A stretch of 64,000 nt of DNA from Synechococcus sp. (GTDB taxonomy: Bacteria > Cyanobacteriota > Cyanobacteriia > PCC-6307 > Cyanobiaceae): the NCBI GenBank assembly GCA_047285535.1, contig JBJBDC010000001.1, positions 2,229,869 through 2,293,868 on the forward strand, given 5' to 3'. Positions 45,001 to 51,000 of this stretch are shown in pieces. The position numbers are program-made. How positions within the stretch are numbered: position 1 is the stretch's first letter; each line of letters begins with the position of its first letter.

Positions 45001-48000
45001 AGGGTAGTGAAGTAGGCGGGGTTCTGTAAGGCCAAGGATCAATCCTGGAATCCCTACCCATACAGTCCATGCTCTGAATTCATGTCCGAAGAGTGAAGGG
45101 AGTAACCAACCGATAAGGATGGGGAATCCAAATCCGATAAGCAGTCCGAACTCGCGAAGTTGTTTTCGGGAAATTGTTTCTTTCATGATCAATCGAGTTC
45201 AAACTCCTCCATCCAGGTCTCATCTTTTTCAACTTTTGGTTGTTCGCTTTTGAAAAGGATCTGGTTTTGGAGAACCAGGACATCCATTTCTGTCCTCATG
45301 AAGCATCTATAAGCATCTCGAGGTGTACAGACAATAGGTTCACCTCTCACATTGAAGGAAGTATTGACGATGGTAGGACAACCAGTCTTTCGCTTGAAGG
45401 CACTGATTAAATTGTAATAACGGGGATTCGTTGTCTTGCTAACTGTTTGAACCCTTGCTGAATAGTCCACATGAGTGATTGCAGGCAGTGAAGATCGCGG
45501 GATATTCAGTTTTTCGATACCAAAGAGTTTGTCTTCTTCCTCTGTCATTTGCTTGCAGAGTTCTTTTTTGACTGGAGCAACCAGAAGCATGTAGGGACTC
45601 TTGGCATTCATTTCAAACTGATTGCTGACATCTTCTTCCAGAACCGATGGAGCAAAGGGACGGAAACTCTCTCGGTACTTGATTTTGAGGTTCATCACGC
45701 TCTGCATCTTCTGATTACGCGGGTCCCCAATGATGGAGCGACCACCTAGTGCTCTTGGTCCAAACTCCATAGGACCGTTGAACCAACCAATCACATGACC
45801 TTTCTCAAGTTCTTCTGCTAGACGCTCAAATAACTCTGGATCAATATGAGTGTGGAATGGCGCATTAATCTGTTTAAGATAGTTACTGATGTCATCGTTG
45901 CTGAACTCAGGACCCAAGTAGGTTCCTTTCATTGAGTCGTTCATGTTGACGACTCTTTCCTGTTCTTGATGTTGATGCCATCCCACCAAGGCGGCACCCA
46001 GTGCTGAACCCGCATCACCGCTGGCAGGTTGAATCCAGATGTCGTCAAAGATTTTCTCTTGAAGCAATTTCCCATTTGCAACGCAATTCAGAGCGACGCC
46101 ACCAGCAAGACAGAGATTCTTGATTCCTGTCTCTTTCCTAAGTGATCTTGCCAGTTTGAGGATGATCTCTTCTGTGACGACCTGGATCGATGCCGCCAGG
46201 TCCATGTGGAACTGGGTGAGTTCTGTTTCTCCCTTGCGTGGTGGTCTACCAAAAAGTTTGTGGAACTTCCGTCCTGTCATGCGGAATCCACGATGGTATT
46301 TGAAGTAACTAATGTCGAGGTGGAAGGTCCCGTCCTCTTTGATATCAATCAGGTTGTCCTTGATCTGATCGACATAGTTGGGTTCTCCGTAGGGAGCAAG
46401 ACCCATGAGTTTATATTCACCAGAATTCACCTTGAACCCGCAGTAGTAGGTGAATGCTGAGTAAAGAAGACCCAGGGAGTGAGGAAAACTGATTTCCCAA
46501 AGGGGTTCGATGTTCTTACCCTTACCAATCCAGGCAGAGGTGGTTGCCCACTCACCAACGCCATCCATACAGAGGACGACTGATTCTTCCAATGGACTTG
46601 GATAAAAGGCAGCAGCAGCGTGTGAAAGATGATGTTCTGAAAAAAGCAGGTTTGGAATATGGGTTGAATTAGTGCCGAATGATTCTTGAACTTCTTTGAG
46701 GTTCTTCTTGAGTTCATTCTTTAAAAAGAGTTTTTCCTTTAACCAGACTTGCATCGCCGCTACAAAGGATCTGCTTCCTCTTGGTGCTGCACCCAGATAA
46801 GTCTCTAGAAGACGTTCAAAGGTCAATAGAGGTTTTTCGTAGTAAACGACCTCCTTGAGGTCTGAAAGATTGATGTCCTGTGATTTCAGGCAATATGAAA
46901 CGGCATTCTTTGGAAATCGTGAATCGTGCTTTTTTCTGGAGAATCGTTCTTCTTGTGCTGCTGCAATGATTTCGCCGTTTTTTAAAAGTGCGGCAGCGCT
47001 GTCGTGGTAATAACAAGATAGTCCAAGAATATATTCATCCATTTAAAAAGGTATGAGTGAATATGCTTGAGGTGCTTGAGATTATACCTTGAAAACTGCT
47101 CCCAAACTCTTTGAGACCGCCTCAACAACCATTGTGATTCCTAGATTGGTCAAGGTTTATTCGTTGCACGCATAGTCTCAAGTCTTGCTAGGAGTTCTTC
47201 AAATCATGGTCGAAATCCTCTTCTTGAGTTCATTGTTCTTGAATAATTTTCAATTTTACTCGTTGGATGCGTTGCTCTAGTCGATGACATCTTTGCTATC
47301 AGGGCCTGGATACCAACCCTTGTTTTTCTTCTTCAGACCGAAGATGAGCATTCCCAGAGAGATGCCATGACCACAACGCTTCAGGAACATCTCTCCTTCT
47401 TCTGCCAACTCCTCTTGAGTCAACGCGTTGGAGACAGCAGTGATTATGTCTAACTCCGACTAAGTACGCTACAGACTTTTAGTTCAGCGTTGGACCTCTC
47501 GTTTAGTCAATTATGAGGGACATGACTTCTAGAAAGGGTATTAAAATTGCCGCAGTAGAACTGGTTGAGAGATTTGTGAGTGATTCTGGTTCCCTTTGAG
47601 TCGTGGACGTATGGATCTCGCATCCAGTCGCTCCTTTGAGTTGTCCTCGTCAAGACGCGAGTGCATCAATCAGTCGCTCTCTTTACATCGTAGTGGAAGT
47701 AGTGCTCTTTCACATACTGGATGCTTGTATCGTAGTTGTTGCCAACTGTCGCGATCGGAACACCGCTCTCTTCAGATCCCAAGAGTTTTGACCATCCGTG
47801 AGACCAAAGATGGATGAAATTGGTACCACGTTCTCTTTTCATCCCAGAAGTGTTTAGTACGTTGCAGATTCCACCCAATGACATTTCTTGGGATCTGAGG
47901 GGAATGAGAAGGTGGGAGATCTTCTGGTAGTTCTGACGATTTTTCTCCTTCTTCGCTTTTACTAGACGATCAAGGTTCCATTGAGGGGTTCCTAACTTGA

Positions 48001-51000
48001 CCCCTCTGTACTTTAGAGACAGGAGACCTGACTTTGATCTCTGACTAATGGAGTCTTTCTCCTGCTCAGACAGATAGGAATAGATATGGAGTTGAAATTT
48101 GGTTGAGTGTGGTAGTGAGGAGACCACCAGTTCCTAATCCTTGTCCTCCATTAGTTTTGAGACAAAACTGACTTTTCTGGATATACGGTCGAGTTTGGAA
48201 ACGATCAGGATTCCCTTTATTTGCTTGACCAGTTCAATCGACTTCAGGAGTTAAGGACGTGAGTCGTCAGAACCCGAATGAACTTCTGCGAATCTCCCAA
48301 CCACCTCATAGGGAGTCTCCTGGTGGTAGGTCTCTAGGTAGTGGTTGATATCCTTCTCTTGTCCCTCTCACCCCAAACCTGGTCTACCCTGTCCCGAGTC
48401 GAGACGCGGAGGTGCTTCGAATGTTTCTTCATTGGTTCTCCTCTCCTGAAATGAAACGACCGTATTAAATAGGACAAAGATACGTTTTCTCTGCGTAGAG
48501 AACCTGTAGAGGTCGTTCAGGCTCTTCAATTGTCACAGTTTTACGAGATCTCTATGCTCCGACTCGTTTTTTGCCGTCTGTCCCCACTGCAACTGGAATT
48601 CCTCAGTTTCACTTGATCTGACCTTCTTCCGGTCTCCTTTTCCTCGCTAGACCCAGGAGATCCAATCCATCGAGTGGGAATAACAGCTGAGGCTATGAGC
48701 TGAAAAGGCGTGCTTTTGTTTGCCAGCTTTGATTAGTTTTTGTGCCTTCAGTGCACCTTTGCTTGCTAATCTGTCTGTTTAAGTGGTGGATTGAACGGGG
48801 CATGAGTATTGATCAGTTACGGCTTCTTCTTCACCTAATCAAACTCCTTGATCAGCAGCCTTGAAAAAGTGAATGGAAATGAGTGCGTTTTGATGCTTCT
48901 GGTTAAGTGTTAGGAAAGAAGGTGGTGTTTGGGATAAGGCGTTAGCGATGTAATGCAAGAACTTCTGCTGTCAGATAAGTTACTTGATCATTTGGTTGTG
49001 ATCTGTGTGCATAAACTGGTTCAATCTATGACCACCAAGGTATAAAATATGTAGATTTGATGATCAGTTTCTTTCCGCCGAGTCAAGCAATCCCAAGCTC
49101 CATGGCTAAGAGATAAGCCCATAAGGTTTGGAAGGTTAAAGATTAAAATCTACTTTTTCTATGCCCCAAGTCCTATCAATTCTACAAGTCTCAAATTGCA
49201 TCCACTTTTGCAAAATACATAATTTTCGCCGCATATATAGGAGCTGCCCCAGATATCCATCGCGGACAAATGCGTCATAATCCTTTGGAATGAGCCTGCT
49301 CGGTCGTTGTCAGGCATTTCCATGATAAACACATTTACATAGTTCAACCATTGAGTATCTCCTTGGGTAAATATAAATTCTTCTGCCCCTTCTATGTCAA
49401 TTTTGAAAACGTCAATCTGCATGCCAAGCAATCCAAATTTCTTCATCAAATCAACAACGGTGTAGGCTGATACAAATACATTATTGCTTTGCTTGAAAGA
49501 ATCGCTGTTCTTTGATTTGTCAACATAAAACGATTCAAAGTTTGATCCTGATAAAAGTTTAATTGATCCAGTTTCGTGCCAAAGCGCTCCATGAACCAAG
49601 TCAACAGAGTCGTCTCCTGAAAAGTTTTCACTTAAAAGCTTGTAGTTTCTCGCAGAGGCTTCCACTGCAACAATGCGAGCTTTTGGGTTGAAGTGACGAA
49701 ATCTCAAGGTCTCGTCGCCGATATTTGCTCCTATGTCAAAGATTAATTTGACATCACCTATTATTTTATACCCAGGCTTATACATATGGCTTATGACACC
49801 TTTGTCGGATCGAGGATAAAAATAAAAAAATCTTCCATGCACAAATATGTGTTTTTTGGTGTCAGTCTTGGATAGTAAATATGAGAAGATTTTTATAGTA
49901 TTAGTAATTCCTGTTTGGTTGACGCACTCAAGAAAGCGGTCGCAAAGCCGTATCGCTCTGTTGATGCGATTCATTGGAGATAAATTTTATAATTAATTAT
50001 TGCATGTGCTTAATTCAAAATCAAGTGTAAAAGCTGATCTTGGCAATTGATCTTCATGCCTTTAAGCCTTGTCTTGGCTTTAATTGGCAATCCCTGGTCG
50101 TATTTCTAGGTATTTTGTTTCAATTCCTTGTCAGAGTTGTTGTCGTTTTTGTGTAAAGGTGCCGAATAGTGGAACTCCCCTTCGGAGTGTCTTTAGAGAA
50201 GGTCTATTTTTCTGCGGTGGAGAGTGGGACCTCTTATTCAGGAATCTTTATCATTCACGTCAAGTCCCCCGGTTCTTCTGTTGATGCTAGAGAACAGTGG
50301 GTCTTCCGCTGAACCATTAGCAAGGCGCCTCATGCTTTTGCTGAGTATGAGGTTTTCCATGAGTTTTGATCACTGTGCCACATTCATTTAAGGCACGATT
50401 GGGTGTTGGTTGGGCCGTTTGATTCTGTTTTCCAGTAGTTCAAGAATTGGTTGAAGCATGCAGGAAGAATCTTGCTTTGCAGGAGCTGCTTGATTCATGA
50501 GAAAGGCATGGAGCAATCGTCCAGTGTCCTCTTCTCCTTTGATGGTCAATGAGCAGTCTTTTGCCATGAATCTTCTGGTTCAGTCGTTAGCAACCTTGGG
50601 GAGGCTCCAGTGGAGTCGGCAGACCCTGGGGGCGTAGACAACGACCTCTCTCAGTTATGGGTGTCGTTATTGGTCTTGATCAGTGACTTCGCTTGGCAAC
50701 ACGTGGTTTCACGTGAAAACTTATCTCAAGTTAAATCTTGAGAAGTGTCTCTATGACTGGGTTTCTGTTCAAACTCCGTCTGGGATCTAATCCAGTAGGA
50801 ATGAGGTTGATTGAGGGGCTGGTGGATGAGCCTCAACGTCGATATCCTTAGCGCCCGGCTGCAAACCCTTGACCGCTGCTCAAGAGCAGGACATCCAGCT
50901 TCAGCGCCGCCTTCAGCAGGACAGCATTTTGCTTGCTGGGAAAACGATCTACATCAATCCATTCCTGTATTGGCGTCGTTTCGACAGCAATACAGATCGT

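Follow-up and report, generated by a model that had tools for sequence, protein, structure and literature searches.

How a bacterial gene can be stripped of nearly all its GpC dinucleotides, and of nearly all its alanine, is the question raised by a serine recombinase gene in the chromosome of a Synechococcus strain (GenBank assembly GCA_047285535.1, contig JBJBDC010000001.1). The gene is located at positions 47772 - 48432 of a stretch of 64,000 nucleotides (positions 2,229,869 - 2,293,868 of the contig), referred to as the window. A preliminary description had called it a resolvase pseudogene from a mobile-element or phage lineage, in which selection against GpC had been strong enough to rewrite the proteins. 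Indeed, the read-through protein matched the Pfam Resolvase domain (PF00239; E = 4.8e-16; residues 8 - 145), and the reading frame, running on the minus strand from an ATG at 48432 to a stop codon at 47772, was broken by five lesions. These were two -1 frameshifts (near 48393 and at 47819/47820, compared with the intact genes of the related sequences L002 and L008) and three premature stop codons (TGA, 48368 - 48370; TAA, 48251 - 48253; TAG, 48134 - 48136). The catalytic serine motif was retained, reading HLRVSTRD in the window copy and YLRVSTREQ in intact relatives, the latter matching PF00239 (E = 5e-23) and the PHROGs family phrog_125, 'DNA invertase' (1.6e-29). By its domain and serine motif, the gene is a serine-invertase (Pin-like) pseudogene of the PF00239 family without a functional frame.

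The deficit of GpC, with expected numbers calculated from base composition and the odds ratio taken as observed over expected, was pronounced. Positions 47821 - 48360 (540 bp, 44.8% G+C) contained 5 GpC versus 27.0 expected (odds ratio 0.19; hand-calculated Poisson probability of at most 5 given 27, approximately 3e-7), exactly the number that had been counted by eye, and the whole gene contained 7 versus 34.9 (0.20). When windows of 540 bp were moved along the 64 kb in steps of 30 bp, the lowest ratio (0.18) fell on this region, the 5 - 95% range being 0.78 - 1.36 and the ratio of the whole window 1.10, or approximately 4.5 GpC per 60 bp. CpG was only moderately low in the same region (0.48 - 0.54), and GA and TC were high. 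This indicates that the GpC deficit is not an effect of low G+C content, as had been argued. The read-through protein had two alanine residues in 221 codons, compared with 9.5% alanine in sampled host proteins; the two residues in about 215 codons reported before, and the peptides VSKLDR, LEGQ, YSYLSEQE and SKSGLLSLK on which that report drew, were all recovered from the minus-strand translation. Of the flanking genes, described earlier as host genes with roughly 4 - 6 GpC per 60 bp, those on the low-coordinate side (43.5 - 47.0 kb) were near normal in GpC but turned out to be RGCY-poor cargo of the same integrated element rather than core host genes (R, purine; Y, pyrimidine).

Relatives free of GpC and alanine

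A search of 5.8 billion proteins retrieved intact homologues of the recombinase. Those of 220 amino acids (aa) with 72 - 83% identity contained 0 - 2 alanine residues, versus 24 - 36 in homologues with 46 - 56% identity; for example, an aligned segment reading YAALAEQERDFISQRTKAALAAAKARG in ordinary homologues reads YSCLSEQERDFISQRTKSGLQSLKDRG in the alanine-free ones. The replicons of the alanine-free homologues had 0 or 1 GpC in 7.5 - 8.4 kb and encoded proteins without alanine. Both checks proposed in the preliminary description, on the nearest intact homologues and on their entire replicons, thus came out as it had anticipated. GpC counts were 1 versus 229 expected in L001 (4,276 bp, 46% G+C, all four proteins without alanine), 2 versus 123 in L005, 1 versus 414 in L007 (8,439 bp), 0 versus 406 in L008 (8,349 bp), 0 versus 583 in L011 (13.8 kb) and 0 versus 357 in L017. 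The latter element and L012, L013, L015, L016, L018 and L032, found by scanning JGI and GenBank metagenome contigs with a conserved 319-aa core protein (p319), were all devoid of GpC. After collapsing at 95% identity, these strict elements comprised 43.6 kb with 4 GpC versus approximately 1,966 expected. The L008 proteome counted 2,233 residues without a single alanine, and all proteins of the strict elements were alanine-free.

Terminal overlaps of 123 bp in L007, L017 and L018 indicated circularity. A contig from an unrelated sequencing run joined position 8315 of L008 to position 1, and another contig of that run left the attachment (att) core into guaA-type sequence, from which it follows that circular and integrated forms coexist. 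Similarly, L022 and L023 were single contigs that each carried a GpC-free tract of 7,483 bp abutting guaA, with an abrupt border to host DNA of 14 - 19 GpC per 200 bp. A sequencing or bisulfite-type artefact was rejected, as single contigs switch from zero to normal GpC at the att site, a wide variety of residues has taken the place of alanine, and the result is the same for independent assemblers and projects. The relatives are small integrative elements of marine Synechococcus, 5 - 8.3 kb in size and circular or integrated at guaA. Estuarine and marine samples yielded the element in 20 or more public runs, one of them a metatranscriptome, and L008 was abundant in estuarine water of the Delaware or Chesapeake type. 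Candidate replication (Rep) proteins and helicases, circular junctions and integrated copies were all present, as is proper to an element that replicates autonomously and alternates between an excised and an integrated state. The phage origin envisaged for the recombinase gene was not borne out, the elements being small, integrative and replicative and lacking capsid genes; an inovirus identity was rejected too, for want of a recognisable set of Zot-like or coat genes. No confirmed relative was found in IMG/VR with the recombinase (P0011) or the integrase (P0045), and tblastn of p319 gave no match in 50,697 phage and 72,556 plasmid records. Scans of sequenced genome contigs retrieved none either, the second of these using two N-terminal patterns only and carrying little weight for absence.

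The loss of GpC acted at the level of the dinucleotide. In L008, GpC was absent from codon phases 1-2, 2-3 and 3-1 (99, 102 and 116 expected, respectively) and from the intergenic DNA, and it was likewise absent from the 635-bp intergenic att region. The strict elements did not use the codons AGC, GGC, CGC, TGC and GCN, nor NNG|CNN codon junctions. In their proteins, ancestral alanine columns were occupied by serine (35 - 39%), glycine (12 - 15%) and cysteine (7 - 9%), followed by valine, threonine and others. Pairs of strict members differed at 9 - 26% of aligned bases, with dS values from 0.45 to saturation and dN/dS values of 0.09 - 0.23. Furthermore, a random point mutation in L008 has a 14.8% chance of producing a GpC, and none was seen among the 650 - 840 differences per pair. 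Since GpC is gone from all phases and from intergenic DNA and none has been gained, alanine was lost as a side effect of a constraint on the DNA itself, which still operates, and the GpC-free state is maintained by strong, continuing purifying selection on DNA. This supports the earlier idea of selection against GpC that rewrote the proteins of a mobile-element lineage. A low-G+C effect was rejected for the elements as well, CpG staying at approximately 0.7. Among palindromes in L008 and L011, CCGG (0.45) and CATG (0.48) were about two-fold low, and GATC, ACGT, TCGA and GTAC occurred at expectation. No report of GpC-free or alanine-free replicons was found by full-text search of the literature.

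That a two-base word was purged even though every protein had to be rewritten implies selection by an agent both very strong and persistent. The elements also provide a natural experiment, showing that alanine is dispensable for the working of a tyrosine integrase, a serine invertase, a VirE-type helicase and several further proteins. The approximately 2,200 alanine-free residues per element, under purifying selection, bear on reduced amino-acid alphabets and on the freeing of codon boxes in synthetic biology.

The window copy, by comparison, is a relic. The recombinase gene was intact in relatives of this chromosomal copy (L002 and the proteins P0001 - P0010; dN/dS 0.07), where it appears to lie at the same junction as the window copy. 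Several GpC of the window copy were also present in L002, indicating that these arose in a common chromosomal ancestor. Its low GpC content is a fossil feature in the course of erosion and is not under current selection in this genome: selection lapsed when the copy became stranded in the chromosome and lost its function, and GpC began to return.

Graded loss of GpC and its candidate agents

The tetranucleotide RGCY was depleted in all relatives, including those with near-normal total GpC. Observed versus expected numbers were 0/101 in L028, 0/53 in L026, 13/108 in L025, 0/128 in L009 (element plus cargo) and 1/63 in L010, compared with 868/726 in the host DNA of the window (positions 1 - 42000). 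Beyond RGCY, the loss depended on the flanking bases. Observed/expected ratios in the L010 group were 0.02 for RGCY, 0.30 for RGCR/YGCY and 0.86 for YGCR, and those in L020 were 0.08, 0.31 and 0.61, respectively. L025 and L026 retained only TGCN/NGCA, i.e. they avoid VGCB; L028 and L009 also lacked TGCA, and L009 lacked CGCG too. Finally, the strict clade lacked all sixteen NGCN words, YGCR included. The GpC-poor clade was monophyletic in neighbour-joining trees of both core proteins.

The palindromic RGCY was lost first everywhere, which is the signature of a dimeric enzyme binding double-stranded DNA. Escalating avoidance of a GC-centred DNA endonuclease, an agent deduced from the avoidance pattern alone, is probably the best explanation. 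The elements would have been exposed to an endonuclease acting at short GC-centred sites, of the CviJI type (RG^CY) and relaxing towards plain GC, and would owe their escape to the lack of cleavable sites, not to methylation. The lineages may record a rising stringency, from avoidance of RGCY only, via VGCB and then RGCY plus RGCR/YGCY, to avoidance of every GpC. The nuclease could originate from the host or from co-infecting T4-like phages that degrade host DNA, and in the case of phages selection would have favoured elements that outlast the infection and get out of the lysed cell. A GC- or RGCY-targeting nuclease was among the agents suggested in the preliminary description; the hierarchy of flanking bases does point to RGCY-type recognition, but the nuclease itself was not found. 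The search for methylase, nuclease and base-modification genes that had been recommended detected none in the elements: their proteins without assigned function, compared with Pfam, PHROGs, PADLOC and NCBIfam, gave no match to a nuclease, methylase or defence protein, the weak matches having E values above 0.01.

A precedent for such specificity is R.CviJI/CviJI* of Chlorella virus IL-3A, a blunt cutter centred on GC that relaxes from RGCY to RGCR/YGCY, the same order in which these words are depleted in L010. The specificity of CviJI/CviJI* has been described as RGCY/GC (PMC3681635), and CviJI* cuts PuGCPy, PyGCPy and PuGCPu, not PyGCPu (PMC7019647). The virions of chloroviruses carry restriction enzymes that break down the host DNA in a matter of minutes (PMC7019647), so that chloroviruses provide a precedent for virus-borne nucleases destroying host DNA. 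They infect hosts of another kingdom, however, and protect themselves by methylation, versus site loss in the present elements.

T4-like marine phages share part of the pattern. RGCY observed/expected ratios among the Kyanoviridae were 0.12 in Syn9 (L034), 0.31 in S-PM2 (L036) and 0.36 in P-SSM2 (L037), and 0.38 in the pelagiphage HTVC008M (L038), all with normal total GpC; the T7-like phage Syn5 (L035) was not depleted (1.29). The depletion in HTVC008M leans slightly towards a phage-associated system rather than a host one. No report of RGCY avoidance in cyanophages was found by full-text search. The graded pattern from RGCY to GC, partly common to these abundant phages, points to an undescribed arms race of GC-centred nucleases or modifications, which would concern a system of phototrophs and viruses that ranks among the most abundant on Earth. 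A wider scenario is tentative and on the whole doubtful, namely that hosts or T4-like phages use nucleases recognising bare GC, that the elements responded with GpC-free genomes, the first natural 19-amino-acid replicons, and that they may survive the phage destruction of the chromosome and spread from lysed cells.

Several observations weigh against avoidance of an endonuclease. Firstly, the neighbour-joining trees are compatible both with an L010 intermediate that preceded the strict state and with one that relaxed from it. Secondly, the residual GpC of L010, L019, L020 and L026 was DNA-strand-asymmetric whatever the gene orientation (RGCR versus YGCY on the p319-coding strand, 31 versus 5 in L010 and 59 versus 8 in L026), an asymmetry that a symmetric cutter of double-stranded DNA does not predict and that hints at a single-stranded stage of replication or transfer. 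Thirdly, the depletion in HTVC008M means that pressure against RGCY extends beyond Synechococcus. Fourthly, CviJI* spares YGCR, whereas the strict clade lacks YGCR and L009 and L028 lack TGCA, so that a single CviJI-type enzyme would need a looser specificity than that of CviJI*. Furthermore, no natural enzyme with a strict two-base GC specificity, nor one cutting YGCR, is known to us. Lastly, no GC- or RGCY-specific nuclease or methyltransferase was identified in host, phages or elements, a homologue of CviJI not having been sought.

Besides avoidance of an endonuclease, a two-step alternative would have a GpC or RGCY methyltransferase, of the host or of a co-infecting phage, mark the element, after which a Type IV nuclease (McrBC-like, recognising R-mC) in the next host destroys the marked DNA. 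Modification of these words does occur, since RGCY is the commonest methylated motif in marine viral metagenome-assembled genomes, especially myovirus-like ones (PMC8919816), and a chlorovirus enzyme methylates the cytosine in GpC (PMC7019647). In addition, gp62 of Syn9 is an N6_N4 DNA methylase. McrBC requires two modified sites, and the 0 - 2 GpC tolerated by the elements would fit an enzyme with such a requirement. This course of events is nevertheless unlikely, as it calls for two separate agents, neither of which has been identified, and as the order RGCY > RGCR/YGCY > YGCR is documented for the nuclease CviJI*, not for a methylase combined with a Type IV enzyme.

The elements, or an obligate helper, might also make a weapon of their own, a GC-specific nuclease or base-modifying toxin to which an element without targets is immune. 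The absolute absence of GpC is what immunity through lack of targets needs, and six of the nine L008 proteins have no recognisable family. Moreover, T4 encodes cytosine-directed nucleases next to a self-protected genome, and a nuclease with a self-protected genome is the strategy of chloroviruses as well. This is very unlikely, however, since profile and Protein Data Bank (PDB) searches recognised no nuclease or methylase domain in any element protein, the universal p319 is predicted to be all-helical without a fold match, and integrated copies sit quietly in GpC-rich chromosomes. Nor does any gene separate the strict from the intermediate lineages, both having the integrase, p319 and a Rep-like protein of the HUH type.

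Mutation instead of selection, for instance by a cytosine deaminase acting at RGC or GC on single-stranded intermediates, would agree with the HUH-like Rep candidates, which suggest a single-stranded stage, and with the strand asymmetry of the residual GpC contexts described above. Deamination of alanine codons would however give valine (GTN) or threonine (ACN), whereas the prevailing serine and glycine need transversions, and GT (1.07) and AC (1.17) were barely enriched compared with GA and TC (1.5). In addition, the element genes are under purifying selection, GpC comes back in copies stranded in the chromosome, and 4 GpC in 43.6 kb would take an implausibly complete and continuous process, all of which makes mutation highly improbable.

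Sequence-specific mRNA interferases of toxin-antitoxin systems exist, and transcripts without their sites escape. Selection at the RNA level for escape from a GC-specific endoribonuclease of this kind could act on elements that are compact and transcribed in nature, as RNA contigs in run X19 testify. Yet it is hardly credible, as the 635-bp intergenic att region is GpC-free, the GpC-free tract of integrated copies ends at the element ends instead of at the ends of transcription units, the context asymmetry tracks the DNA strand and not gene orientation, and the class avoided first, palindromic RGCY, bears the signature of a dimeric enzyme on double-stranded DNA. Chance, or the composition of the protein, in a short decaying pseudogene has a negligible probability: the tract in the window measures only approximately 0.9 kb and an alanine-poor protein automatically entails fewer GpC, but this reading is refuted by the lowest ratio in 64 kb, the depletion of all codon phases and non-coding DNA in the relatives, and their 4 GpC in 43.6 kb. 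Avoidance of a CRISPR protospacer-adjacent motif (PAM) was rejected too, as a symmetric 4-bp RGCY does not fit a PAM; to our knowledge, CRISPR is rare in marine picocyanobacteria.

Element anatomy and relation to known systems

The recombinase pseudogene is part of a degenerate 6.1-kb element that a tyrosine integrase inserted into the 3' end of guaA (Table 1), and the invertase gene with approximately 250 bp upstream is the sole surviving GpC-poor piece of it.

Table 1. Features of guaA and of the degenerate element integrated at its 3' end (window coordinates)
Feature	Position	Strand	Evidence or remarks
guaA (GMP synthase), integration target	41017 - 42603	+	90% cluster with the GMP synthase of Synechococcus sp. 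ROS8604
attL core ATTGAGTGGGAATAG, last four guaA codons plus stop	42589 - 42603	+	attP-like identity with circular elements continues to 42621
Whole degenerate integrated element, 6.1 kb	42604 - 48683		RGCY-poor throughout
Tyrosine integrase, truncated N-terminal remnant	42706 - 43131	+	Integrase genes of L008, L007, L005 and L010 match at 69% (blastn)
Cargo: 366-aa protein (faint GDSL-lipase match), SxtJ-like, DUF5989, carbamoyltransferase (45189 - 47042)	43524 - 47042	-	Pfam on identical L003 genes
Second tyrosine integrase, C-terminal scrap (..ATVGNNYDTSIQYVKEHYFHYD..)	47666 - 47760	-	Minus-strand translation versus integrase C-terminus ..GVTEPYIRKHYSHYMTR..
GpC-poor tract	47766 - 48686		13 GpC versus 48.9 expected (0.27); sharp border at the gene 3' end, other border at attR
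Serine recombinase pseudogene (Pin-like DNA invertase)	47772 - 48432	-	Translation, Pfam, alignment to relatives
Recombinase upstream region	48433 - 48668	-	Homologous to the recombinase-integrase intergenic region of circular elements
attR core ATCGAGTGGGAATAA	48669 - 48683	+	Direct repeat of attL, 13 of 15 bases identical

The element contained 8 RGCY versus 72.5 expected, the last host RGCY before it being at 42575 and normal density returning at 48685. As all 1-kb windows with an RGCY ratio below 0.5 fell inside it, RGCY depletion alone outlines the element, with attL and attR as its exact limits, and depletion of RGCY or GpC may serve as a simple compositional marker to delimit mobile DNA in picocyanobacterial genomes. 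The Pfam domains GATase and GMP_synt_C were found on the same guaA gene in L003 and L009. The attL region had a 33-bp match (97%) to L008 (209 - 241) and L007 (3808 - 3840), and the match was also present in L001, L005, L010, L011, L017 and L021. GpC-poor DNA was limited, within the element, to the tract of Table 1, which was homologous to L008 7543 - 8320, L005 1206 - 2149 and L002 44 - 930. The region upstream of the recombinase was assigned by multiple alignment and by blastn to L005 and to L008 (305 - 379), its promoter and arm-type repeats being degraded in the window. Element homology stopped at attR, where GpC and RGCY returned to normal density. Judged by its GpC positions, the integrase remnant at 42706 - 43131 came from a lineage with normal GpC and no RGCY, and the second integrase scrap had an 80% DNA match to L009 (20763 - 20893) and a junction apparently in common with L002. 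The cargo genes had normal alanine contents (4.1 - 6.5%) and near-normal GpC, with 7 RGCY versus 49 expected at 43200 - 47600; over the entire cargo part (42604 - 47765), 7 RGCY were counted versus 60 expected, while GpC and alanine were near normal. No tRNA gene was found between 40 and 52 kb of the window, integration site included, and the sequencing runs of the strain itself, a marine Synechococcus close to ROS8604, contained no L008-like element at 90% likeness or above.

The core genes of the elements encode a tyrosine integrase of 437 - 458 aa (PF00589), p319, a HUH-Rep-like protein of approximately 210 - 220 aa and several small open reading frames. Accessory genes encode the serine invertase, a 627-aa Walker-A protein (p627) related to phage VirE/primase proteins, an acidic protein of approximately 180 - 190 aa and variable cargo. 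HUH-like motifs were noticed by inspection only, in p220, p216 and p206 (L008, FFTMERH..YHTNLIIG..KHYSLK; L023, FITLSF..HLHILIEG..VHYVNK; L010, MFLTIK..YHIHGLL..IQYMVKE). The p319 family counted at least 188 clusters without a Pfam domain; its AlphaFold2 model (pLDDT 83) is all-helical with two domains, and Foldseek matched it to no PDB structure with E below 0.8. Sequence searches of the PDB with p220, p319 and p627 gave nothing meaningful. At 3609 - 4229, L008 encodes a predicted membrane protein of 206 aa with a tryptophan-rich repeat run (RVLRWTLVELWRVSKWTMINSWRVSRWTLVILFG) and no family match.

The att core of the elements, ATTGAGTGGGA(A/G)TAGTTCAGGGGGTCAAATCCC, corresponds to the last four codons of guaA, the stop codon and 18 nucleotides. 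As it holds the end of guaA, integration restores the gene. The integrase gene adjoined the att core in L008, L010, L017, L021, L023 and L009. A segment of 220 - 310 bp with the attP core was inverted in L008 (approximately 120 - 430) and L007 (approximately 3700 - 4000) with respect to L001 (735 - 1433), L017 (3540 - 4175), L005 and L011, with collinear flanks; compared in inverted orientation, the segments were 95% and 85% identical. The segment had the serine invertase gene on one side and the tyrosine integrase gene on the other and was bordered by inverted CACGTGAAACTCACGTGAA repeats, which were not recognisable in the window. From this arrangement, the attP segment may be an invertible cassette flipped by the serine invertase. 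The enzyme belongs with the Pin/Hin/Gin invertases (PF00239, phrog_125), being a small serine recombinase of the same size (approximately 220 aa) with the serine in ..RVST.., and in intact relatives its gene adjoins the segment found in both orientations between inverted repeats. The segment carries the attP core, however, versus a promoter or tail-fibre gene in Pin/Hin/Gin, and its inversion by the enzyme is inferred. In an inverted-repeat region rich in TCTCTACG motifs, the sole GpC of L001 (position 1347) occupied the same aligned position as L005 1408, approximately 85 bp upstream of where the recombinase gene starts. This GpC may be tolerated there or may have a function.

Restriction-site avoidance, in the form summarised in PMC12707154 (citing Rusinov et al. 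2018), depletes short palindromes in mobile DNA and not in the host, and the same was found here (GpC, 4 of 1,966 in the strict elements; RGCY ratio, 0 - 0.14 in the relatives versus 1.2 in the host). The ordinary two-fold depletion of CCGG and CATG in strict elements fits that picture as well. Known avoidance, however, concerns sites of 4 - 8 bp with few or no amino-acid changes, whereas here the loss of a 2-bp word is absolute, and whole replicons do without one amino acid in 20, without four codons besides and without a class of codon junctions.

Tycheposons and cryptic elements of Prochlorococcus (bioRxiv 10.1101/2020.12.28.424599) are likewise picocyanobacterial and have a tyrosine recombinase adjoining the att site. 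They also have small serine recombinases, VirE-type helicases/primases, conserved genes without known function, cargo modules and hot-spot islands, as do the present elements. The tycheposon examples given in that preprint integrate at tRNA genes, whereas the present elements target the 3' end of guaA and carry HUH-like Rep candidates; the words alanine, dinucleotide and guaA do not occur in the preprint. The guaA element works like a tycheposon but is not classed as one, as it does not integrate at a tRNA or tmRNA gene. Restriction-site avoidance and tycheposon-like elements are thus known already, the present case being an extreme variant; a GC-specific nuclease system would be new if it is behind it.

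The suppression of CpG in RNA viruses and in HIV-1 under ZAP demonstrates that a host factor reading a dinucleotide can reshape genomes and codon choice. Unlike the GpC loss in the present elements, it acts at the RNA level in eukaryotes, is partial, can be achieved by synonymous changes and costs no amino acid.

A few further sequences deserve mention. Just beyond attR, positions 48700 - 50800 formed a stretch of low G+C content (38 - 47%) with an FkbM-type methyltransferase gene (49159 - 49974); its normal RGCY content indicates an island of another origin than the guaA element. On L006 (645 - 1304), the recombinase P0014 had ordinary GpC and alanine contents up to nucleotide 969 and was GpC-free from nucleotide 970 to the contig end, and is a natural recombinant of the ordinary and GpC-free lineages. 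L011 (13,798 bp) carried alanine-free cargo genes absent from L008, as well as inverted duplications of the recombinase, p319, a secreted-looking 354-aa protein and a 118-aa protein, which are either a fold-back assembly artefact or the product of an inversion. Lastly, Synechococcus sp. M16CYN (L009, AP029048.1) harboured an integrated relative at guaA (9950 - 20700), with seven alanine residues in its integrase, no RGCY over approximately 10.7 kb and, apparently as cargo, a cadherin/SBBP-repeat protein of 1,250 aa. Being located in a sequenced genome, this copy may offer a culturable handle on the element family.

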